A DNA stretch of 64,000 nt. It comes from an uncultured virus (IMG/VR IMGVR_UViG_2706795104_000001) (Duplodnaviria > Heunggongvirae > Uroviricota > Caudoviricetes > Herelleviridae). Numbering within the stretch: the first letter of the stretch is position 1; each line of letters starts with the position of its first letter. The translations under genes were made by a program, and so were the position numbers. The stretch is from positions 88,779 to 152,778 of the IMG/VR virus record IMGVR_UViG_2706795104_000001; one strand, written 5' to 3'. Shown piece after piece: positions 44,884 through 54,320 of this stretch. Under the pieces are notes generated by a model, which made no database searches, was not told where the DNA came from, and saw nothing but the letters and a program-made list of their open reading frames with translations.

Positions 44884-45654
44884 ATGAATAAGAAAAGGGC
44901 AGGTAGCACTTACACCTTCGCCAAAAAGGTACTCACAAAGGAAGAAACATATGAACTAATTGAGAGGTCACAAGCAGGAGAGGAGGAAGCAACAGAATCA
45001 TTAGTCGAACACAACGCTCGACTTGTCACTTATGTAGTAAGACGAAAGAACAATCCGTATCACGAATATGACGACCTGTTTCAATTAGGAATGATTGGAT
45101 TAATAACTGCTATAGCGAAGTTCGATACTTCAAAAGGACTACAGTTTTCCACTTATGCGGTCCGATGGATTGACGCAGAGATTGGCAACTACTTGAAGAA
45201 CAGAACTTCTATCTTAAAGGTTCCGAGGGAGATCGGTGCAATCGTTAATAAAATCCTTGCAGTTAAGTTGAAGAACGAGGAACCAGCTATTATAATGGAG
45301 AAGCTAAAGTTAGATGCAAGTCAGTTAGATAACGTCACGATTGCTTTAGAGATTATACACAATGAAGTCATTAGTTTGGACAAGCAGACAGGAGAAGAGA
45401 AAGATGACTCACTATCTTCAATTGTTGGACAAGATGTTAACCAAGACTGGTTCTCAGGTTTAGCATTTTACGATATTATTAGATTCCTAGACGATAAGGA
45501 ACAATCCGTACTTACATTAAAGTACGTTCACGACATGTCCAGTAATAAGATTGCAACATTGTTCGGTACATACGCAAATAAGATATCTCGATTAGAGAAA
45601 GTGGCTTTAGACAAACTACGAGAGCGTTACACATACGAGGAGTTGATAAATTAA
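44884..45654 (+). CDS. SigF/SigG/SigB-like sigma factor 1
   Basis: LVEHNARLV, DDLFQLGMIGL..AI.KFD, FSTYAV.WI.AEI, LKVPR, ISLD, ISRLEK.AL. Confidence 0.9.
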   Translation: MNKKRAGSTYTFAKKVLTKEETYELIERSQAGEEEATESLVEHNARLVTYVVRRKNNPYHEYDDLFQLGMIGLITAIAKFDTSKGLQFSTYAVRWIDAEIGNYLKNRTSILKVPREIGAIVNKILAVKLKNEEPAIIMEKLKLDASQLDNVTIALEIIHNEVISLDKQTGEEKDDSLSSIVGQDVNQDWFSGLAFYDIIRFLDDKEQSVLTLKYVHDMSSNKIATLFGTYANKISRLEKVALDKLRERYTYEELIN

Positions 45655-45663
45655 AAATAGGGA

Positions 45664-46425
45664 GTGGGAGAAATGATATTATGGAAGGTAAGAGGTATTG
45701 AACTAACTCGGGAAGAAACAATCGAACTTGTGAAAGAAGCTAGAGCAGGATCAGAGGAAGCAAAAGAGAAAATTATACTTGGTTATAAAGGTATGGTGTA
45801 TACATTGGCTAAACGGTTCAGCAGAAGCAAACAACACGAGTTCGAAGACATGTTTCAAGAAGGGTTGACTATCTTATTAGAAGTAGTGGACAAGTTCGAT
45901 ATCGACTCAGGTTACGCATTCAGTACGTACGCTTATCCATTTGTCTTCGGCAAGATGAACAACGTTCGCAAACGGTACAATCCTATCAAAATATCAGCAC
46001 ATATTACCGATATTATTTCGAGGATTAGAAAGTATAAGCTAACGGATAGAAGTGAGAAGGAAATATACGAGTTCCTTAATAAAGAGTATGAATTAAAATG
46101 GGTTCGAGCTGCACTTGAGTACATGCGTAGAGGTAAGGTTCTAAGCCTTGAGAAGACTTTTGCCGAGGATGAGGAGAGTGACTGGGCCGCAACATTGAAG
46201 GAGGTGGTGTCCAAGGACGCTAACGGTGATTGGGAGTTGATGATGGACATTAAAGGATGTGTACCGAGTCTAACATCTTATGAGCAGTATGCGTTCTGTG
46301 AGCACATTCTAAAGGATAGAATGCAGTCAGATATCGCAGAGGAGTTAGGAGTAAAACCACAGACAGTATCCAAGCATGTTAATAAAGCATGTAGAAAAAT
46401 TAAATTAGAACTAGGAGGAGTTTAA
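45664..46425 (+). CDS. SigF/SigG/SigB-like sigma factor 2
   Basis: EDMFQEG, DKFD, FSTYAYP...G, LSLE, Q.DIAEELGV.PQTVS. Confidence 0.88.
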   Translation: MGEMILWKVRGIELTREETIELVKEARAGSEEAKEKIILGYKGMVYTLAKRFSRSKQHEFEDMFQEGLTILLEVVDKFDIDSGYAFSTYAYPFVFGKMNNVRKRYNPIKISAHITDIISRIRKYKLTDRSEKEIYEFLNKEYELKWVRAALEYMRRGKVLSLEKTFAEDEESDWAATLKEVVSKDANGDWELMMDIKGCVPSLTSYEQYAFCEHILKDRMQSDIAEELGVKPQTVSKHVNKACRKIKLELGGV

Positions 46426-46426
46426 T

Positions 46427-46918
46427 ATGTCAACAACTTATGAAACATTTGAAAGCAAAAAGCAAGCAGCTATTAAATTATTACAGGAGACAACACTCAC
46501 TCTACGAGAGATTGGGGAACGTACTGGTCTTTCAGCAGGTACAGTAGGATCGTGGTCGAAGGAACATCGTCCTGCACATATTTCTAAACGAAATCAACGT
46601 TTAGGGTCACTAAAAGGCGCAGAGACTACTCGGAAGATACTAGCAGGTAGACCTAGAGGTAAAAAAGTTAATGTGGTTCTTCCGAATATCGGAGACTTTA
46701 AGGAAGATGACGAGTCTACAAATGTGGTTATGTCAGTCGATACAGAGACGAGCATAAGCAACGATCCGTTCGACTTCCATTTCAGTATCAATGCGTCCGA
46801 AGCTAATATAGATAAAGAGGAAGCCGTATCCCGACTACGTAGCGCACTAGAAATCCTAGAAGGTCTTCCATCGTCAAAAGTATCGCTAAACTTATCAATT
46901 AATAAAGGGGAAAAGTAA
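46427..46918 (+). CDS. HTH-domain protein
   Basis: TLREIGERTGLSAGTVGSW. Confidence 0.75.
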   Translation: MSTTYETFESKKQAAIKLLQETTLTLREIGERTGLSAGTVGSWSKEHRPAHISKRNQRLGSLKGAETTRKILAGRPRGKKVNVVLPNIGDFKEDDESTNVVMSVDTETSISNDPFDFHFSINASEANIDKEEAVSRLRSALEILEGLPSSKVSLNLSINKGEK

Positions 46919-46919
46919 C

Positions 46920-47180
46920 ATGGAAAACAAAACACCGAATTACCTTGTATGGGATGTTGAAGAAGTATCAAGTGTGTGCAGTCCCGAGGAGATGCAGATG
47001 CTTAACAACGTCATCGACAAAGTGCTACAAGCAAGGTTACAAAGGGGACAATCTAATAACGTACAGTACTTAGTAATCCCTAGCTTTAAGCCGTACTACC
47101 GTCCAATCTCAGAGATGTTAGGACTTATACAAGCTTCTAACAACCAAGGATATATGAAAGGATACAATGATGCAAACTAA
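46920..47180 (+). CDS. Hypothetical protein
   Basis: AAGGGG RBS. Confidence 0.7.
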   Translation: MENKTPNYLVWDVEEVSSVCSPEEMQMLNNVIDKVLQARLQRGQSNNVQYLVIPSFKPYYRPISEMLGLIQASNNQGYMKGYNDAN

Positions 47181-47211
47181 CTTCCGATATTTTTTCGGAA
47201 GTTTTTTTTTT
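47179..47211 (+). terminator. Rho-independent terminator
   Basis: AACTTCCGA/TCGGAAGTT plus T-run. Confidence 0.85.
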
Positions 47212-47216
47212 CGTAC

Positions 47217-47272
47217 AGGCAACTTTCTCCACGTTTACCCATATCATTTAACTAAGTAATACAAAATAACAC
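47217..47272 (+). promoter_or_regulatory. Putative sigmaK-like or phage-sigma promoter plus operator repeats
   Basis: AGGCAAC-N16-CATATCAT then GTAATACAAA-ATAACAC; same layout at 53509-53578. Confidence 0.55.
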
Positions 47273-47306
47273 TTCCTCACACAGAGGAAAACAGGAGGTA
47301 ATACTT

Positions 47307-48404
47307 TTGATTACAAATAAAACAATCCGTTTGAACCCACAACCTGATAGTCTTTCGGTAGCTGCTTTAGATGATGGTTTCGGTGATATCAAATATGACT
47401 ACAACGGTTCACCATTATTAATCCCATCATTCGTAATTCCTTACAAACCAAAACCAAAGGATGACTTCTCCACTGGAAGTAAGTTAGAGTACATCGCATG
47501 TGAAGTAGACGGTAGAAGATACGTAGTCGGTGATTACGCAATTAAAATGGGAACAAATGTTGACTGGATCGGTGGAGAAAATAAGCACCTGGATAAACGG
47601 TTCCCGATAATGTTTAAGACCGCACTAGCTAGGATGGCACGAGGGGTGCAGGAGAGAGTATATACACTCATGATGAACCTTCCTATTAAAAACGATACGG
47701 CAGAGCGCAGAAAGGCTCTAACCAACCTTGTACGAAATACACATGAAATATCCATATCTTACGATGGTGTGGAGTTCATGCCAAAGATAATCACAGTAGA
47801 AGATGTAGTTATCAAGAAGCAACCTTTTGGATCGTTATGCGATGTCATGCTAAACAATGACGGAGAAATCATCGACCACGATGTAGCAAAAGGATTCGTA
47901 GTTCTAGTTGATGTAGGAGCAAGAACACTAAATATTCTGACAGTTGATGGATTAGAGGAACAACCTGAACTGACTACACATACAAACAACGGAATGTTTC
48001 AAGCGTATACGGCAGTTAGTCAGTATCTAGAATCGTCTCACGGAATTATGGTTCCTGATGGAAAGCTTCCTATGATAATGAAATCTAAGGAAATACGAAA
48101 CATGGATATTACAGACCTAGTGAATCAGGCATACGAGAACCACGCCAACACGATCCTAAACGTACTTGATAAACTTTTAATCGACTCATATGGGTTTGTA
48201 ACTACAGTGATATTTACTGGTGGTGGCGCAGAGCTAATGAAACCACACCTGGAAGAGAAATACAGAGGTACTAACATTCGTACACTGTTCCTAGATAGAT
48301 ATGCAAACGCAAGAGGACTTCGCAAGTACGGTATACGTTCTGCAAAGAAGCAACAAAAGAAAGGGATTAACATTCACGTAGGGGGTAACTCTTATAACGG
48401 ATAG
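47307..48404 (+). CDS. parM: ParM/StbA-family actin-like ATPase
   Basis: DDGFGDIK, QPFG, VDVGART, FTGGGA, ANARG actin-fold motifs. Confidence 0.9.
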   Translation: MITNKTIRLNPQPDSLSVAALDDGFGDIKYDYNGSPLLIPSFVIPYKPKPKDDFSTGSKLEYIACEVDGRRYVVGDYAIKMGTNVDWIGGENKHLDKRFPIMFKTALARMARGVQERVYTLMMNLPIKNDTAERRKALTNLVRNTHEISISYDGVEFMPKIITVEDVVIKKQPFGSLCDVMLNNDGEIIDHDVAKGFVVLVDVGARTLNILTVDGLEEQPELTTHTNNGMFQAYTAVSQYLESSHGIMVPDGKLPMIMKSKEIRNMDITDLVNQAYENHANTILNVLDKLLIDSYGFVTTVIFTGGGAELMKPHLEEKYRGTNIRTLFLDRYANARGLRKYGIRSAKKQQKKGINIHVGGNSYNG

Positions 48405-48417
48405 GGAGGAGGTTTGA

Positions 48418-48741
48418 GTGAGACAGTCATTATATCTTAGGGAGAGATTAGATGCCGATATCTTAGATGTAGTAGAACCGTTAATGAAGCACGCAAGCTT
48501 TGCACACGTAATACGAGAACTGATCCGAGATGGTATAAAGTACAGAGCGATGCAGAAGAGTGGAGCTATGTATGAGAAAGTAACACAAAGTAATCCAGTA
48601 TCGAAACCTTATAAACCAAAGGCTTCAGGAGTGAAGTATGAGAATATACCACAAAGTAATACAAAACCATTAATGAATGTGCAAATTAAGAAAAAGGAAC
48701 TATCAAAACAGGAAATCGAGAACAAATTAGATGCATTCTAA
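48418..48741 (+). CDS. Ribbon-helix-helix ParR-like adaptor
   Basis: RQSLYL..D.DIL...VIRELIRDGI directly after parM; GGGAGGAGG RBS. Confidence 0.7.
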   Translation: MRQSLYLRERLDADILDVVEPLMKHASFAHVIRELIRDGIKYRAMQKSGAMYEKVTQSNPVSKPYKPKASGVKYENIPQSNTKPLMNVQIKKKELSKQEIENKLDAF

Positions 48742-48748
48742 ATCCATC

Positions 48749-48851
48749 TTACCCGTATTACCTAATTACCCAATTACCCACGGGTAAGACGTAATTACCC
48801 ACTAATTACCCACATTTATGAGTATGTTATTTCCGAGGGTAATTAGGGTAA
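48749..48851. repeat. (AA)TTACCC direct and inverted repeat array, candidate centromere or origin
   Basis: About 6 direct copies (48749-48811) and 3 inverted GGGTAA copies (48782, 48837, 48846). Confidence 0.8.
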
Positions 48852-48904
48852 AATCAGTCGTATCAAGGGTTTTACACGGGTCACACGAAATTCATCTTTC
48901 CCAG

Positions 48905-49066
48905 TCAATCAATAACACGAAAATCATGCAATACAGTAAGGATTGTGTAAAGTTGCTCCATGTTAATATCAATTTTCTTCTTCTCCTTAATTTCTTGAAG
49001 AACTAGATGGTCAATAAATTTCATTTGCTTTTCGTAACGATACTCACTATCTGTACTGAACCACAT
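48905..49066 (-). CDS. Small antisense-strand protein (53 aa, not in ORF track)
   Basis: AAAGGAGG RBS 9 nt before ATG; MWFSTDSEYRYEKQMKFIDHLVLQEIKEKKKIDINMEQLYTILTVLHDFRVID. Confidence 0.7.
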   Translation of the reverse strand: MWFSTDSEYRYEKQMKFIDHLVLQEIKEKKKIDINMEQLYTILTVLHDFRVID

Positions 49067-49151
49067 TCTTCGCTTCCTCCTTTATAGTTGAATCATTAAG
49101 TTACCTGTAGTATTGCCAAATAAAAAATAAATATACATGGAGGTTTTAAAA

Positions 49152-49337
49152 ATGGGTATTTTGACAACTGGTGTTTCAATCGTGGTTATGTGCTCGGCAG
49201 GTATTGCAGTCTCTACTGTATTTAAATGGTTACACAATTACGAGTTCAATATCGGTAAACCGAATAACGGATCGCGGTCGGGCGGAAATGACCGTATTAG
49301 CAGTTTGAATGACCGAGTTAAACCAGGCAACCGTTAA
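49152..49337 (+). CDS. Small single-TM protein
   Basis: GGAGG RBS; N-terminal hydrophobic helix. Confidence 0.7.
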   Translation: MGILTTGVSIVVMCSAGIAVSTVFKWLHNYEFNIGKPNNGSRSGGNDRISSLNDRVKPGNR

Positions 49338-49369
49338 TAATAGAAGGTAACTATAAAGGAGGAAGTAAA

Positions 49370-49903
49370 ATGATAAACGTAAACTTAGGTGCTAAAAATT
49401 TGGATAGTCAAGTGGAATATGTACCATTTAAGAAGGTAGCAACTATTACTGAGGAGCCAAGTTTTTTAGTCGAAAACGTAGTGAGGGAGGTGACGGAAGC
49501 AACAGAAGGTCGCAAAGTAAAGAAGGTACGCAAATTGAAGAAACTGGTAAAGGTTTCACTGTCCGTATTGGCAGCAAGCATCAACATCGCTCCGAGAGCA
49601 ATGGCATCGGGAGTAACTGGGGGAACACCACTTCTATCTCCGCTAACACCTGCGGTCGTAATGGAATGGGGACTACAACTAGCGTTCATAGCAGTAGCGG
49701 CAGGGGTTGCAGTAGCAATGGTTACACTTACAACAGCAGGGGTATACAGAATGCTCAGAAAGAAACAGGAAGCCGATGCATGGAGCCAAGACATTCTAAA
49801 GGGACTAACGCAAGTACTCATAAGCGTACCAAGCATTTACCTTCTTTACTACTTGGCGAAGTTACTCTTCCAAAACTTAAACTTCTTAAAACTAGCCTTA
49901 TAA
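49370..49903 (+). CDS. Membrane protein with signal-like segment and VirB2/TrbC pilin-like helix pair
   Basis: KKLVKVSLSVLAASINIAPRAMA, then TM-RKKQEADAWSQDILKG-TM; family call is pattern-based. Confidence 0.55.
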   Translation: MINVNLGAKNLDSQVEYVPFKKVATITEEPSFLVENVVREVTEATEGRKVKKVRKLKKLVKVSLSVLAASINIAPRAMASGVTGGTPLLSPLTPAVVMEWGLQLAFIAVAAGVAVAMVTLTTAGVYRMLRKKQEADAWSQDILKGLTQVLISVPSIYLLYYLAKLLFQNLNFLKLAL

Positions 49904-51057
49904 AATGTGCAAAGGTTGCAGTCATTCCTCTAGCTACAGTTTCTACATTCTTCTTGACTTCCGTAACTGACAGAACATATGCGGCCGTAACTGATATGGG
50001 TACCGATCCGAACTCTTTCTTCTCAGGAAGTAAGGGTAACATGTTCCAAGGTGTAACAAACTTCTTTACAGGTAAAGTGCAGGAGACATTGATTCCTGAT
50101 CCGATACAAGAGATTATTAATTGGTTCGGTGAATTTATAAAACTGATTAAGGAACTACCTGTAAATGTAGGTCATATGTCGGCAGACCTTATGGCTTGGG
50201 TATACGAACTATGCGGGGATTTAATCTTGAAGACACCACTGTGGTTATTCAGTAACGAATGGTTCACGAATATGACTTTACTATTTAGCTCAGTGGCATT
50301 AGGTGCAGTTGCAGTCCTAACAGTTATCGAAGCAATCAAACGAATGTTCACAGGAGTAAAAGATGGAAGACGACCAATGGTAAAAGCACCGATGGAATTT
50401 AAAACAATCATTAAAAGATGGGCAGTCGTAGCAGGACTAACAACAATCGTTCCATTCCTATTCCAAAAAACATTCCAACTTCTGAATTATATATCCGATA
50501 TACTCATAGGTATGAACGGTAAGACAATGACAACAACTGCTCTATCGGAAACATTCGGTACACTGGATATTATAGCTCTCCTAGCATTCGATGCAGTACT
50601 GATTGGTACAGTAATCCCTGTACTGTGGCAGAACGGACGTAGATTTTTCGACCTACTGGTTTTGGGGATCACTGCTCCATTAGCACTAGGTGCTTGGGTA
50701 TTCGATTCGAAACGTCACCTATTCGACCAATGGTGGAAGAACGTAAAACATCTATCACTTGTTCAAGTATATCACTCTCTATTCCTACTTGTATTAGGTT
50801 GGTTCATATTCGGTATCCCTACACCTGTAGACTTCACAGGTACAGTCATCAAGTTATTAGTTGTAATCGGTGGGTTTGCTCGTATGCAGAATCCTCCGAG
50901 ACTGATAGCGCAACATTTAGATAGTGGTGGAGGACTCGATGAGATTACGAAGAAACCACTTAGAGGAACAAGACAGAAAATTCTGAGTAACTTTGCTTTC
51001 TCTAAGAGTGCAGTTATGAGTCCGATTAATTTACTGAAAAAGATTAAAAAGAAATAG
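49780..51057 (+). CDS. Polytopic membrane protein, VirB6/TrbL-like
   Basis: At least 6 TM; RRFFDLLVLGITAPLALGAW...FDQWW....LVQ resembles TrbL/VirB6; start uncertain. Confidence 0.6.
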   Translation: MEPRHSKGTNASTHKRTKHLPSLLLGEVTLPKLKLLKTSLIKCAKVAVIPLATVSTFFLTSVTDRTYAAVTDMGTDPNSFFSGSKGNMFQGVTNFFTGKVQETLIPDPIQEIINWFGEFIKLIKELPVNVGHMSADLMAWVYELCGDLILKTPLWLFSNEWFTNMTLLFSSVALGAVAVLTVIEAIKRMFTGVKDGRRPMVKAPMEFKTIIKRWAVVAGLTTIVPFLFQKTFQLLNYISDILIGMNGKTMTTTALSETFGTLDIIALLAFDAVLIGTVIPVLWQNGRRFFDLLVLGITAPLALGAWVFDSKRHLFDQWWKNVKHLSLVQVYHSLFLLVLGWFIFGIPTPVDFTGTVIKLLVVIGGFARMQNPPRLIAQHLDSGGGLDEITKKPLRGTRQKILSNFAFSKSAVMSPINLLKKIKKK

Positions 51058-51068
51058 GAGGAACTACC

Positions 51069-51185
51069 ATGAGTATGACAACGGCAATTATCATTTTGAA
51101 TACGACTATGCTATTGACAAACGCTACGGTGAATGCGATTCAGAGTATTTTATTATACAAGGAGTTGAAGAGACGTGTGGACTAA
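51069..51185 (+). CDS. Small hydrophobic protein (38 aa, not in ORF track)
   Basis: GGAGG RBS; MSMTTAIIILNTTMLLTNATVNAIQSILLYKELKRRVD. Confidence 0.6.
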   Translation: MSMTTAIIILNTTMLLTNATVNAIQSILLYKELKRRVD

Positions 51186-53496
51186 AACGAAGGGAGCGAA
51201 GAACATATCTAACTATTTCTCCATTGTAGAGGATATCGGTAAAGCATTTGAACAGATTATGAATGCAGATACAGAAGGTATATTCGGTCTAGAACTTCAA
51301 TTGTATCCAGGAGGGAGAAGTCTTGTTCTAGTCTCTCCTCCTAGTCTTCGGATCGGAAACGGAATTAGTCCTCGTCAGACGCTCGTAGAGGGCAATACAG
51401 ACGACTTATCCTATTATGAGGGTTATTTACTCGAACCTAACTTCCTTCCACTGTACGGGGCTTATAAAGGTGCCTTGCTGAATGAACTTACTTCTATAGA
51501 ATTGAAAGGAGGTGAAATCATTGAATTGCAGTGGCTGCTCCGTAGACGGTACGACAATTGGAGACCGAATGCAGTAGCAAGATATAGCAGTTATTTAGAA
51601 GGTAATGACTATCCGTTGCAGTCTAATCTCGGCAGAGGTCTCCAAACGAAAATTCTGAAAACTCTAAACAAGATAGCTTCCTTCGAAACCAAGAGACCAT
51701 ATATCCAAGAAGTAGAAAATAAAATTGTAGACGAAGCATACCAATTCCAGTTACGATTGGTCGTCCGTTCTAAGGAGCCTAAGAGCCTTGTACAGAGCTT
51801 GGATAACGTCCTAAGCAAATACGACTCGTATAATGCTCTCCGACTTTATAAACGAAAGGAGCGTGGGATAAAGCAGGAATACACGGATCGTATCATGACA
51901 GGAGATACGGACACACAAATATTAAGTAGGACAGAGCTTGTATCCTTATTCGGTGGGACCGCAATAGAAGTTACACCAGTACAACCAGCCGTAACCGAGA
52001 AACAGTTAACGGACTATAAAGTGACCGAGGTTAAGACCGATGGAATAATAGCTCTACTGCCACAGTATGATAGGGAGAAGGTTGAAGCAGACGAAGGATT
52101 AATCACGAAACTGGCTGAAGCAATGAAACGAGTTGGGTTAATTAGTCAAGCACGTCTAACAAATAGTTCTATCACTTCAGGTATCAGGCTCACGGTTATC
52201 CAATGTGATATACCGAAACAAAAGACATTGAGCCACATTGTAGGTAAAGCAGTCGATATACAGGCCGCACTTGGAGTTGTATCTTTAAGCGTTGAACAAG
52301 GGAGCACGGCAGACACAGTACGATTCACGATCCCAAACGAAGTTCCTTCTATAATAGGATTACGAGAACTACTCGAAGATGCACGGTTCCATGAGTATGC
52401 TCAGGACGCAGTACTACCTTTCATTGTAGGAGTGAATGAAATAGACGAACCGATATATCTGTCACTCGGGAAGCTTGTACATTTGATGATTGCAGGGACT
52501 ACGGGTTCAGGTAAATCGGTATTCGTAAATACACTTATTATTTCACTACTGGCTACGTACCCACCTGATTTACTTCGCTTCTATATGATTGATCCGAAAC
52601 TGGTAGAGCTTAGTCACTACAAAGACTTACCACACGTAGAACACGTTGTTACAGACATGAGGAAAGCAGCGACCATGCTCAGTAAACTGGTACAGGAGAT
52701 GGAACGGAGATACGCTATGTTCAGCGAGAACGGGGTAAAAGGTATCAAAGTGTATAACGAGAAAGTAGAAAAGAAAATGCCGTATATCGTCTGTGTAGTG
52801 GATGAGTATGCAGATTTACGGGACACAAACCCTGAAGTTGAGGAATTTATTGTTAGGTTAGGACAAAAAGCGAGAGCTGCTGGGATACATCTAGTCATCG
52901 CTACACAGAGACCAAGTGCAAATATTATCAGTGGTCGAGTAAAAGCGGTCATACCGAGTGCAATAAGCTTCAACCTTAACTCTAATACAGACTATAAAAC
53001 CGTATTCGGGAAAGGGATCGGAAATACGAAATTATTAGGACGTGGGGATGGGATCATGAGGATAGAAGGTTGGGAGAAGGAGTTCCAACGCTTTCAGAGT
53101 TCCATTGTAAGCCCCGTAGAGTCCCGTGAGGAGCAAGTATACAAGGACATAATAGATTACTTCTCCAATACGAAAAGCGTCCCATTAGACGTTCAGAACC
53201 CTATTATAGAAGGAGTTGTATTTGACGGAGATATAGAACTTGAAGAAGGGGATATAGAACTGGACTACGATATCATCACAGAAGAGGACTTATTAGAGAA
53301 GTTAAAAGGCGTTATAGCACGTACGAGAGAAACAAGAGTTGCAGAGCTACGCAAGTTAATGAAGATTAAAATGAATGTACTATCTGAACTCATGAATAAG
53401 TTAGTAGAAGAAGGTTGGTTAGTGAAGCACCCGTCTAGGGCTAAAGGTTATGAAATATCCATAGATGAGTTGACATTGGCTCGATACAAAAAATAA
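51175..53496 (+). CDS. FtsK/SpoIIIE-family DNA translocase
   Basis: HLMIAGTTGSGKS, MIDPK.VEL, EMERRY, VVDEYADL, RAAGIHLVIATQRP, LLGRGD; C-terminal winged-helix-like region; no N-terminal TM. Confidence 0.93.
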   Translation: MWTKTKGAKNISNYFSIVEDIGKAFEQIMNADTEGIFGLELQLYPGGRSLVLVSPPSLRIGNGISPRQTLVEGNTDDLSYYEGYLLEPNFLPLYGAYKGALLNELTSIELKGGEIIELQWLLRRRYDNWRPNAVARYSSYLEGNDYPLQSNLGRGLQTKILKTLNKIASFETKRPYIQEVENKIVDEAYQFQLRLVVRSKEPKSLVQSLDNVLSKYDSYNALRLYKRKERGIKQEYTDRIMTGDTDTQILSRTELVSLFGGTAIEVTPVQPAVTEKQLTDYKVTEVKTDGIIALLPQYDREKVEADEGLITKLAEAMKRVGLISQARLTNSSITSGIRLTVIQCDIPKQKTLSHIVGKAVDIQAALGVVSLSVEQGSTADTVRFTIPNEVPSIIGLRELLEDARFHEYAQDAVLPFIVGVNEIDEPIYLSLGKLVHLMIAGTTGSGKSVFVNTLIISLLATYPPDLLRFYMIDPKLVELSHYKDLPHVEHVVTDMRKAATMLSKLVQEMERRYAMFSENGVKGIKVYNEKVEKKMPYIVCVVDEYADLRDTNPEVEEFIVRLGQKARAAGIHLVIATQRPSANIISGRVKAVIPSAISFNLNSNTDYKTVFGKGIGNTKLLGRGDGIMRIEGWEKEFQRFQSSIVSPVESREEQVYKDIIDYFSNTKSVPLDVQNPIIEGVVFDGDIELEEGDIELDYDIITEEDLLEKLKGVIARTRETRVAELRKLMKIKMNVLSELMNKLVEEGWLVKHPSRAKGYEISIDELTLARYKK

Positions 53497-53508
53497 ATGT
53501 TGGCTAAA

Positions 53509-53578
53509 AGGAAACAATTTAGTTCTAACCTCATACAATGAGCCATAGACTATAACATGTAACACAAAGTAATACAAA
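53509..53578 (+). promoter_or_regulatory. Putative sigmaK-like or phage-sigma promoter plus operator repeats
   Basis: AGGAAAC-N16-CATACAAT then GTAACACAAA-GTAATACAAA. Confidence 0.55.
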
Positions 53579-53601
53579 ACAAAAATCGGGAGGAATTACT
53601 T

Positions 53602-54286
53602 ATGAAAAACACAACTAAAAAAATCGCAATTGGTGGAGCAGTAGTAGCATCATTATTAGTAGGAGCACTTGGTGGAGCAGCAGGAGCAAGTTCATACTTA
53701 AATGACAATACAGTGGATTTAGTATCATTTTAAACAGTGGAGTAACGAGCTTACGGATAAAGTAGTTAAGAAGAATGGTACAATTAAAGACTTACAGGCT
53801 TCTGTAGCTAACCTTGAGAAAGCAAACAAAGAGTTACAGGATTCAAATACACAAAAGGATGCTCAGATTGAGAAGTTGAATGCAGAAGTTACTGCTTTTA
53901 CAGAACAGGTTAAAGTCCTTCAACAAGATATCGCTAATAAGAATATGACAATTGATAAGTTGACTGCTTGTATTGCAGAACTAGAGGGCAAAGTAAAAGG
54001 ACTACAGGATAAAGTAGATGGTCTTGAGAAGAGTAATGCAGAGAAGCAAGCAATTATTGATAACTTGACTGCAACATTAAAAGCTACAGAGCAACAACTT
54101 AAAAATACACAGGTTATCTTAGCACAAACGAAAAAGGAACTTGATGCTGCTAATCAAGCAGGAAAAGATAAGGATGCAAAAATTGCTAACTTAGAAGCTA
54201 AATTGAAAGAATACAGTGATGAAATTAATACATTGAAACCACTTCAAAAATCACAGGATCAGAAAATCAAGGACTCAGAAAAATAA
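53602..54286 (+). CDS. Membrane-anchored long coiled-coil protein interrupted by a +1 frameshift at TTT-TAA (53728-53733)
   Basis: GGGAGG RBS; MKNTTKKIAIGGAVVASLLVGALGG; the +1 frame is open from 53732 into ORF 53876..54286. Confidence 0.7.
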
Positions 54287-54292
54287 CATGTC

Positions 54293-54320
54293 AGGGGAAT
54301 CCATTACGGGTTCCCTTTTT
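54293..54320 (+). terminator. Rho-independent terminator
   Basis: GGGAATCC/GGGTTCCC plus T-run. Confidence 0.8.

Follow-up and report, generated by a model that had tools for sequence, protein, structure and literature searches.

Two adjoining cassettes in large Bacillus phages: ParMRC-like partition genes beside a candidate FtsK-driven, type IV secretion-like DNA mover

The genome of an uncultured virus deposited as IMG/VR record IMGVR_UViG_2706795104_000001 is 152,778 bases long and is estimated to be 96% complete. Its right-hand 64 kb (64,000 nucleotides, positions 88,779 to 152,778 of the record) is referred to here as the window, and the subject of this report is a gene block at positions 47217–54320 of that window, or about 136–143 kb of the 152.8-kb record. 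The carrier is a large, lytic-type, Caeruleovirus-like Bacillus phage (Herelleviridae, Bastillevirinae). An earlier inspection of the letters and their open reading frames (ORFs), called here the sequence-only reading, had described the block as one system for segregating phage DNA and moving it across membranes. The computational analysis reported below finds two adjoining cassettes, a partition cassette followed by a translocon cassette, and suggests, largely from structure models, that the block is a minimal FtsK-driven DNA mover resembling a type IV secretion system (T4SS) in an unexpected carrier.

Across the block, identity to the corresponding region is 96% for Bacillus phages Hobo and BM15 and 92% for vB_BceM_Bc431v3 (Bc431v3), and 15 more records of the same phage group match it at 87–89% identity. 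The Bc431v3 record is classed as Herelleviridae, Bastillevirinae, Caeruleovirus, and the phage has been described as lytic (PMC3601020); the Herelleviridae records compared are linear double-stranded DNA (dsDNA). Gene content was compared by tblastn of 13 window proteins against 38 loci, one of which, a spurious pattern hit, was dropped; locus counts below refer to the remaining 37, many of which are near-duplicates. The features, from left to right in window coordinates, are as follows.

47179–47203, plus strand: left terminator-like hairpin, a 9-bp stem and then a T-run, closing the upstream sigma-factor operon; Bc431v3 has a terminator annotated there.
47307–48404, plus strand: ParM/ALP (actin-like protein) actin-like ATPase of 365 amino acids (aa); PF21522, PF17989, phrog_691.
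48418–48741, plus strand: ParR-like adaptor candidate, 107 aa; phrog_3536 at 4e-46.
48755–48850, no strand assigned: centromere-like TAATTACCC array; the unit is found in direct orientation at 48763, 48792 and 48803 and inverted at 48837, with degenerate versions at 48755 and 48771.
48905–49066, minus strand: 53-aa ORF between the cassettes, with tblastn matches in most loci; orf103 in Bc431v3.
49137–49337, plus strand: p66, a single-pass membrane protein (DUF7394); PF24126 at 43.6 bits, above the cut-off; phrog_3796.
49370–49903, plus strand: p177; phrog_3528 at 6e-80; 37 of 37 loci.
49780–51057, plus strand: polytopic VirB6/TrbL-like membrane protein; phrog_3750 at 2e-175; core from about 49954.
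51069–51185, plus strand: 38-aa transmembrane (TM) peptide whose stop codon overlaps the FtsK start codon; conserved LNTTMLLTNA.V core; 24 of 37 loci.
51175–53496, plus strand: soluble FtsK-family ATPase, 773 aa; PF01580 at 185 bits (cut-off 24).
53602–54286, plus strand: coiled coil with a signal or TM anchor (phrog_4876), split here by a one-base insertion in the T-run at 53728–53731.
54293–54317, plus strand: right terminator-like hairpin, a 10-bp stem and then a T-run; Bc431v3 has a terminator annotated there.

Every gene of the block is assigned to a PHROG family. Together with the conserved relatives and the two terminators, which bear out the earlier description of a terminator-bounded block, this shows that the block is not a random run of ORFs; it is a real, conserved piece of a known phage group. 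The sequence-only reading had also remarked that the window lacks an integrase, and the whole 152,778-base record gave no match to PF00589 or PF00239, the tyrosine and serine recombinases.

The ATPase is laid out as a region resembling the VirB4 N-terminal domain (NTD; about residues 11–270), a linker, an FtsK alpha/beta motor (about 332–627), an acidic linker and a C-terminus resembling a winged helix, for which Pfam gave faint winged helix-turn-helix hits only (MarR_2 at 0.024, HTH_27 at 0.1). The motor matches Escherichia coli FtsK (2ius) at 4e-59 over query residues 354–627 and Pseudomonas aeruginosa FtsK at 6e-55, compared with 5e-31 to 2e-21 for EccC/YukB chains, EccC itself lying at about 1e-24 to 1e-31, and 3e-18 for the coupling protein 6o1w; judged by these matches it is much closer to true FtsK than to either of the latter. 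A hydropathy scan gave no credible TM segment, and none in residues 1–330; the lone borderline peak (355–373) falls in the stretch that aligns to soluble FtsK. The earlier claim of an FtsK/SpoIIIE motor without a TM domain of its own was therefore upheld.

With respect to the N-terminal domain of the ATPase, the model is a soluble alpha/beta structure with a predicted local distance difference test (pLDDT) score of 78 overall and mostly 80–95 over the first 260 residues or so. Residues 11–270 superpose on residues 37–405 of TrwK/VirB4 with a Z-score of 12.9 and a root-mean-square deviation (rmsd) of 3.3 Å over 214 aligned residues. A search independent of Foldseek again placed VirB4 first (Z 12.5), ahead of an ESX-3 chain (Z 8.1, 136 aligned) and unrelated oxidases (Z about 6). 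As modelled, the ATPase N-terminus has the VirB4-type docking-domain fold. All 81 longer homologs of this domain carry PF01580, and hence its fusion to an FtsK motor is a family trait; 6 of the 81 also bear a precomputed PF12846 label. Since the ATPase matches PF01580, and neither PF03135 nor PF12846, it is not filed as VirB4.

The second protein on which the T4SS comparison depends is the polytopic membrane protein. Its AlphaFold model (pLDDT 70) has as top match TrwI/VirB6 of the R388 T4SS (7o3v_F; Foldseek E 0.022). VIA-align placed 241 of 261 residues on this chain at an rmsd of 5.5 Å and Z 11.0, the next-best matches reaching 6.5–6.9, a score that is tempered by the tool's caveat, a point on the opposing side, that all-helical models can reach a Z of about 11 through arrangement alone. 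When 48,161 representative chains were searched independently, only VirB6 scored a Z of at least 8. Searched with a profile of 37 homologs, 1.84 billion cluster representatives yielded only 157 hits at E ≤ 0.001, and when the 29 most distant of the profile hits were scanned, 9 matched TrbL, TrbL_4 or TrbL_5, 2 of them above the curated cut-off. Given the caveat on helical matches, the VirB6 assignment is drawn from the fold together with this transitive sequence link to TrbL, and on both counts the protein, as modelled, is VirB6/TrbL-like, in agreement with the earlier description. The GenBank record of phage Atlee labels its homolog 'conjugal transfer protein TrbL'. The best fold matches of the two modelled block proteins, polytopic protein and ATPase, are two subunits of one solved machine, the R388 T4SS.

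The polytopic gene likely starts at ATG 49780, inside p177, the overlap being 49780–49903. The polytopic frame is open for more than 400 bases within p177, and at 19 of 19 loci an NTG codon lies about 123 bases before the p177 stop (120 bases in one locus). In the window this codon is preceded by AGGAAG and followed by a conserved basic stretch and a signal peptide, and no alternative start codon there could include that signal peptide. Synonymous-site conservation is not raised in the overlap (0.431, compared with 0.462 before it), so that the evidence for the overlapping start consists of the conserved NTG, the open frame and the conserved signal peptide.

The sequence-only reading had listed three small membrane proteins, and these are p66, p177 and the 38-aa peptide. 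The single hydropathy peak of p66 spans residues 7–25, and the protein was found in 26 of the 37 loci. p177 begins with a cytoplasmic N-segment, after which come a K-rich stretch, a signal-like helix that ends at a P-x-A-x-A site, and two hydrophobic helices; in the alignment the P-x-A-x-A site is conserved near residue 79, and a basic loop, RMxRKxxEAxxW, joins the two helices. In architecture only, p177 has the layout of a VirB2/TrbC pilin. Its profile retrieved 21 family members among 5.8 billion proteins, none of them labelled by Pfam; leads from a language-model atlas scored 0.82–0.84, under the tool's mark of 0.9; and the only homolog to reach T4SS_pilin was that of phage 0305phi8-36 (E 9.7e-4; 19.6 bits, below the 26.6 cut-off). 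The earlier mention of a pilin-like protein thus stands for the layout and does not stand for the family profiles, on which more is said below, the other leads being weak. From the overlap of its stop codon with the next start codon, the 38-aa peptide is inferred to be translationally coupled to the ATPase gene. In operons of the virB type, virB3 precedes virB4, and the peptide gene is placed before the ATPase gene in the same manner; the likeness is one of analogy only.

The cassette to the left opens with the 365-aa protein, which by family profiles is a ParM/ALP actin (PF21522 at 103.5 bits, cut-off 27.8; PF17989 at 65 bits, cut-off 26.3; phrog_691, 'partition protein', at 1e-108), as had been recognized from the sequence; filament formation and DNA movement are predicted from this. 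Its nearest solved relatives in a sequence search of the PDB were Ta0583 (1.2e-11) and the ParM of pSK41 (3js6; 2e-10). Directly 3′ of the actin gene in 34 of the 37 loci is the 107-aa adaptor candidate. In an alignment of 16 homologs an N-terminal R-x-[ST]-[LV]-Y strand with two helices is kept, as is the acidic KKEVSxEEIExRLDxF tail, and the linker between these ends varies; a ParR-type adaptor would be expected to be laid out in this way. The protein had been called a ribbon-helix-helix (RHH) protein; the sequence pattern is indeed RHH-like, while a Pfam scan to E 10 gave no match and the PDB profile search gave chance matches only (E ≥ 0.13). One GenBank record names a homolog 'VapB-antitoxin', which is the depositor's label and not a test.

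Fourteen bases past the adaptor stop codon begins the TAATTACCC cluster. Four exact copies of the motif occur in the 152.8-kb genome, all of them in this cluster, accompanied by degenerate ones; 0.66 copies are expected per window, and none of 100 shuffles reached four. The repeat array of the sequence-only reading is thus unique in the genome, and the iterated short repeats found beside ParMRC operons have their counterpart in it. Among 35 related sequences, 18 have an 8-mer repeated at least three times that begins within about 100 bases of the adaptor stop. The motif varies by lineage, the versions found being TAATTACCC, TAATTCCC, AAATTCCC, TCTTTCCC, TGTTTCCC and TATTCCCG, and a constant position combined with a changing motif is the pattern expected of a centromere that co-evolves with its binding protein. 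The array is therefore regarded as a putative centromere to which the adaptor may bind. Taken together, actin, adaptor and repeats appear to behave like a ParMRC cassette with a repeat motif that changes between lineages.

The order of the translocon core proved to be constant. p177 lies just 5′, and the FtsK gene just 3′, of the polytopic gene at all 37 loci with a polytopic homolog, and the actin and adaptor genes are found upstream at 34 of the 37. Among publicly collected phages, 159 records contain the polytopic protein, 157 of them named Bacillus, and 163 the actin, nearly all Bacillus. Outside the Herelleviridae, the unrelated jumbo phage 0305phi8-36 (115935–128687) has the same order of block genes: actin gp207, p107-like gp206, p177-like gp204, polytopic gp203, the 39-aa peptide gp202 and the 802-aa gp201. 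Of gp201, only the N-domain is detectably shared, with an hhalign probability of 94.5% against the profile; its C-terminal half has no match in Pfam or the PDB. The next protein, gp200, is Replic_Relax-like at E 6e-5 (23.6 bits, below the 25.3 cut-off).

A megablast search of the block against plasmids gave no matches, and relatives surfaced only at the protein level, where the polytopic protein was found in 12 plasmid records, 10 of them from Bacillus. Two of the 12 were inspected, both megaplasmids of the B. cereus group: pBMB26 (B. thuringiensis finitimus) and pBFI_1 (B. cereus 03BB108). In both the order is an HTH_3 regulator, a small protein, a p177-like protein, the polytopic protein, the peptide and FtsK. 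Both plasmids are typed 'non-mobilizable', yet MOB-suite assigns pBFI_1 to MPF_T. On a chromosomal contig of Aquibacillus saliphilus (100598–121539) the two cassettes are both present, separated by genes for an M23 peptidase and a repressor; a tyrosine recombinase gene comes right after the FtsK gene, with PhoH and phrog_8308 nearby, and this copy could represent a relative of these 'virulent' phages that has integrated or decayed.

The sequence-only reading had proposed synteny across Bacillus phages and plasmids as a check, and the core order came through it at all 37 loci, in 0305phi8-36 and on the two plasmids. The block is shared with other large extrachromosomal elements of spore-forming Bacillaceae. 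The pairing of the two cassettes is frequent, recurs in two phage lineages and is not obligatory.

The preferred interpretation is that of two cooperating cassettes, a ParMRC-like partition system and a minimised inner-membrane core of a T4SS or conjugation machine that moves phage DNA, and the chances that it is correct are judged to be about even. The N-terminus of the adaptor would bind the repeats and its conserved acidic tail the actin, so that actin filaments could carry the repeat-tagged genome to the site of the pore. There, the VirB4-type N-domain would dock a hexameric FtsK ring beneath the VirB6-like channel, the small peptides serving as connectors, and the motor would pump the linear dsDNA genome of the phage through the cytoplasmic or septal membrane with neither relaxase nor nicking. 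The likeliest use would be non-lytic, in bringing the phage genome into a forespore, a sister or a neighbour of the infected cell, or in keeping it there. In its boldest form, this interpretation would have virulent Bastillevirinae phages, 0305phi8-36 and certain B. cereus-group megaplasmids all encode working conjugation-derived machinery that needs no relaxase; the entire linear genome, brought to the pore by the actin cassette, would be pumped through a membrane, and a 'strictly lytic' phage would thereby spread to other cells or to the forespore without virions; this we hold to be unlikely.

A non-lytic role is suggested by two observations. Bcp1, a myovirus from a study whose myoviruses have genomes of about 140 kb, is reported to have given stable, curable carriers (PMC2716549), and the same module is found on megaplasmids. 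The earlier proposal that separate membrane proteins supply the channel or anchor for a soluble FtsK has gained support in its structural half, in the conserved unit, the VirB6-like protein and the VirB4-type N-domain. The accompanying proposal that the block is a single system had a mixed outcome: the cassettes occur together at 34 of 37 loci and in 0305phi8-36, and against this stand the ParM-less core on pBMB26 and pBFI_1 and a divided published record, in which ParM is reported in SPO1 (PMC12991052), as opposed to an FtsK pham reported for Bastille-like phages only (PMC4528723).

A number of results weigh against a cooperating, DNA-moving machine of T4SS type. The T4SS families themselves are scarcely reached: the window polytopic protein matched no Pfam family up to E 10, one of 37 members of its family reached TrbL_4 at 1.3e-4 and two of 37 reached TrbL at 0.12, and of 19 p177 family members none matched T4SS_pilin or TrbC at E ≤ 1. 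As the sequence-only reading had stated, neither a relaxase nor VirB4 was found; across the genome there were no matches to the VirB4 families PF03135 and PF12846 or to PF03432, the sole relaxase family searched, and the searches did not extend to homologs of VirB5, VirB7–11 or VirD4 or to cell-wall hydrolase partners. As to directional pumping, Pfam found no FtsK_gamma at the ATPase C-terminus, and a scan of the 152.8-kb genome for polar 8-mers like the FtsK orienting polar sequences (KOPS) or SpoIIIE recognition sequences (SRS) gave only purine-rich words near the Markov expectation. On pBMB26 and pBFI_1 there is no actin or adaptor within 9 kb; the presence of the core on plasmids without the actin indicates that the translocon core is a self-contained module. 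A ParM gene has been reported for SPO1 (PMC12991052), and in a comparative study the FtsK pham is reported only for Bastille-like phages and as absent from SPO1-like and Twort-like relatives (PMC4528723). SPO1, a phage outside the group for which the pham is reported, nevertheless forms virospores (PMC12991052; PMC4528723). Finally, the sigma factors of Bcp1 are reported to block host sporulation by themselves (PMC2716549), and a block to sporulation by related phage sigma factors is taken up in the discussion of PMC9429907; these effects weaken the forespore version of the model.

Other functions for the block have to be considered. It might be a membrane-tethered DNA handler that moves no DNA across a membrane: the membrane proteins would anchor FtsK, and ring and actin would organise, untangle or clear replicating phage DNA, for example in clearing closing septa, resolving concatemers or positioning replication or packaging factories. 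The motor is, by homology, a bona fide FtsK-type dsDNA translocase, and the native task of FtsK is to clear DNA from septa. The tyrosine recombinase that follows FtsK in Aquibacillus recalls the FtsK–Xer relationship, and phage and prophage actins, such as AlpC of the Corynebacterium prophage CGP3, reportedly support viral DNA replication. The block is also described as lying among genes of replication and nucleotide metabolism (PMC4528723). Such a handler would leave unexplained the VirB6-like channel, the pilin-architecture p177 with its signal-peptidase-like site and the secreted coiled coil, and the N-domain copies a T4SS docking domain rather than a septum-targeting one. Moreover, the module is accessory, since SPO1-like and Twort-like relatives, as presented in the same source, replicate well without it (PMC4528723). 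On this evidence a handler is considered quite unlikely. A tool for anti-sporulation or host takeover would act at the asymmetric septum and, in concert with the neighbouring sigma factors, hinder SpoIIIE-driven chromosome translocation or forespore development, so that the host stayed vegetative and productive. It would account for the two sporulation-type sigma genes at 44884–46425 directly upstream, for the sporulation block caused by the homologous Bcp1 factors alone (PMC2716549) and for the finding that the elements with the module belong to spore-forming Bacillaceae only, both the phages (157 of 159 records named Bacillus) and the plasmids (10 of 12 records from Bacillus). Schwartz et al. 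judged their own data to fit disruption of sporulation better than entrapment (PMC9429907). A conserved, intact motor with a DNA-binding-type C-terminus exceeds what interference would need, the same module resides on megaplasmids that are inherited through spores, and the sigma genes lie away from the block in more distant phages, all of which make this function very unlikely.

The abundance of membrane proteins, which comprise every component but the ATPase, could point instead to a device for importing the phage's own long genome or for blocking injection by superinfecting phages, and the Ced system, which with homologs of VirB2, VirB4 and VirB6 only imports DNA, offers a model for the former, with ComB also mentioned in the same source (PMC11868833). 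The block does not, however, lie at a genome end, its position being about 136–143 of 152.8 kb here and 132–139 of 165 kb in Hobo. Since the module is accessory within the Herelleviridae, as far as the published comparison describes it (PMC4528723), it is not needed for genome entry in general; in an exclusion device the ParMRC neighbour and the dsDNA motor would be superfluous. Entry and exclusion are thus given little probability. Protein secretion of type VII or type IV kind, exporting the downstream coiled coil or other phage proteins, has in its favour that FtsK-family ATPases drive type VII secretion, that EccC/YukB chains match the motor at 5e-31 to 2e-21, that the second-best fold for the N-domain is the ESX-3 chain (Z 8.1, 136 aligned) and that a secreted coiled coil is encoded directly downstream. 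The motor is, however, far nearer to FtsK (4e-59) and has one ATPase domain compared with two or three in EccC/EssC; the coiled coil has a signal or anchor of its own and was found in only 14 of 37 loci; and the VirB4 and VirB6 matches lie clearly above the ESX match. A type VII secretion unit was rejected on account of the FtsK-like single motor and the VirB4 and VirB6 matches, which outrank ESX, and protein secretion as a whole is deemed highly improbable.

The coiled coil itself has an N-terminal hydrophobic anchor or signal, and the record of 0524phi7-1 annotates its homolog as secreted. In the present record the gene is split into two pieces that match phrog_4876 at profile positions 1–42 and 91–226 of 226. 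The T-run at 53728–53731 has four T here and three in five close relatives, and the split was also apparent in a comparison with Bc431v3; in all five relatives the ORF is intact (227 aa), and contigs of related phages are also without the extra T, which is either a homopolymer assembly error or a private pseudogene. The membrane-anchored coiled coil described earlier is thus right as to its anchor or signal and incomplete as to the gene, which is split in this record and whole in five of five relatives. Because it was found in just 14 of the 37 loci, it is not a core part.

Directly upstream of the block are two SigF/SigG-type sigma genes (44884–45654 and 45664–46425), a third protein (46427–46918) with a sigma region-4-like helix-turn-helix (phrog_8794) and a small phrog_5992 gene. 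These genes (44884–47180) form a separate operon with its own terminator boundary, and in the tblastn comparison of the loci the sigma genes do not adjoin the block in more distant phages. The Bc431v3 record names bcp25/26 of Bcp1 as the nearest relatives of its sigma-factor pair. Between the two cassettes, orf103 of Bc431v3 carries the depositors' note of a SigG-like promoter. HNH homing-endonuclease genes have been inserted at varied intergenic points of the block in JBP901, BCP8-2, CM1, PK16, 0524phi7-1 and Atlee, in some phages just behind the adaptor gene, in Atlee in the gap that separates the polytopic and peptide genes, and the block's own gene order is unaltered by them. Over the whole block, MN364664.1 ('Xanthomonas phage Xoo-sp15') shares 88% identity with these Bacillus phages, which makes the host label of that record doubtful.

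Eighteen soil metatranscriptome libraries from different studies each contain about 17% of the block's sampled words. Three of them yielded contigs of 2–20 kb from a relative about 92–93% identical, in runs that also contain contigs of up to 234 kb. These look less like transcripts than like phage or bacterial DNA that was carried over, or a contaminant common to the libraries; contigs in RNA libraries do not show transcription, and hence no conclusion on expression of the block or its timing is drawn from them.

Parts of the block have appeared in the literature under another heading. The FtsK/SpoIIIE gene, a 'segregation protein' and the two sigma factors were called sporulation-related in 2013 and 2015 (PMC3601020; PMC4528723), a label given because the motor is homologous to SpoIIIE/FtsK and since repeated in reviews (PMC4113786), and ParM is mentioned in connection with entrapment (PMC12991052). 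The suspicion in the sequence-only reading that single genes might already be annotated was therefore correct, as the GenBank labels and these papers attest (PMC3601020; PMC4528723). None of the papers listed by searches of the open-access and bioRxiv literature connects Bacillus phages to VirB6 or interprets the block as T4SS-like machinery, phage-encoded FtsK in conjunction with conjugation gave reviews only, and no description of the genes as one system came to light, which accords with what had been supposed. Two observations appear to be new, namely that an FtsK motor bears a VirB4-type N-domain and that the module extends from Herelleviridae to a jumbo phage and to megaplasmids. The anatomy first proposed was largely right, and the link to T4SSs is stronger than sequence alone could show.

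How the genomes of virulent phages enter spores ('virospores') and persist in carriers is a question that is decades old and active in Bacillus, according to recent sources (PMC12991052; PMC9429907). The block provides named, deletable candidates for the virospore question, namely the docking domain, the channel protein, the motor and the centromere, and since it is also present in relatives with B. subtilis as host, the question is directly testable there; Goe3-like, SBSphiJ-like and phiNIT1-like phages all have homologs. If the cassette is a working translocon, it would add a bacterial and viral member to the few minimal T4SS-like DNA movers (Ced, FtsK-type conjugation), it would show that a VirB4-type docking domain has been recruited by an FtsK motor, and it would blur the boundary between phages and conjugative elements. 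The block also bears on biocontrol with broad-host-range B. cereus phages, which are described as assumed to be 'strictly virulent' (PMC4528723).

The components of the block have counterparts in several known systems. With SpoIIIE and FtsK the phage ATPase shares a homologous alpha/beta motor (PF01580; 2ius at 4e-59). In place of their N-terminal membrane domain it has the VirB4-NTD-like domain, Pfam finds no FtsK_gamma, and the motor is always accompanied by a membrane-protein set of its own (37 of 37 loci). As in the ParMRC systems of R1 and pSK41, the gene for a small adaptor comes after that for the actin ATPase, and a short-repeat array accompanies them. The centromere repeats of R1 lie upstream of parM, whereas those of the phage lie downstream of the adaptor gene, and the replicon that carries them is a virulent phage that gave no integrase-family match. 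ParM and ParR of R1 are reported to bind the coupling protein TraD and the VirB4-like TraC and to enhance transfer (PMC4949242), and this provides a precedent for a partition cassette beside a transfer machine.

The closest structural likeness is to the Trw T4SS of R388, a machine solved by cryo-EM, in which the polytopic protein resembles TrwI/VirB6 and the N-domain of the ATPase resembles the NTD of TrwK/VirB4; in contrast to Trw, the ATPase domain is of FtsK type, and the window proteins reach no Pfam T4SS family. In its reduction to a few parts the block recalls Ced, which is described as having homologs of VirB2, VirB4 and VirB6 only, with a VirB4-NTD fold on a HerA-clade ATPase, and as importing DNA (PMC11868833). 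Ced too combines a VirB6-like polytopic protein with small two-helix membrane proteins, one of them VirB2-like, and has no relaxase, and the block has the same three kinds of parts. Ced is archaeal (Sulfolobales; CedA, CedA1/A2, CedB/CedD), chromosomal and UV-induced, and its HerA-clade ATPase often has TM helices, whereas the phage ATPase is FtsK-clade and soluble with a C-terminus resembling a winged helix; the two are likened by their parts and not by sequence homology.

For pELF2 and Streptomyces plasmids, a 'first end' transfer of linear dsDNA has been proposed, with FtsK-type motors, few membrane proteins and no nickase (PMC13492992). These systems, TraC/TraD/TraG of Enterococcus faecium pELF2 and TraB of Streptomyces, have in common with the block an FtsK-type motor, soluble or membrane-bound, and a few integral membrane proteins in the absence of a nickase. 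In pELF2 the VirB4 and VirB6 roles are assigned by analogy without detectable homology, and there are two separate ATPases; in the phage, one polypeptide joins a VirB4-type N-domain, as modelled, to an FtsK motor, and the presumed channel is a detectable relative of TrbL/VirB6. The carriers of the pELF2 and Streptomyces systems are plasmids, whereas the carrier here is a virulent phage.

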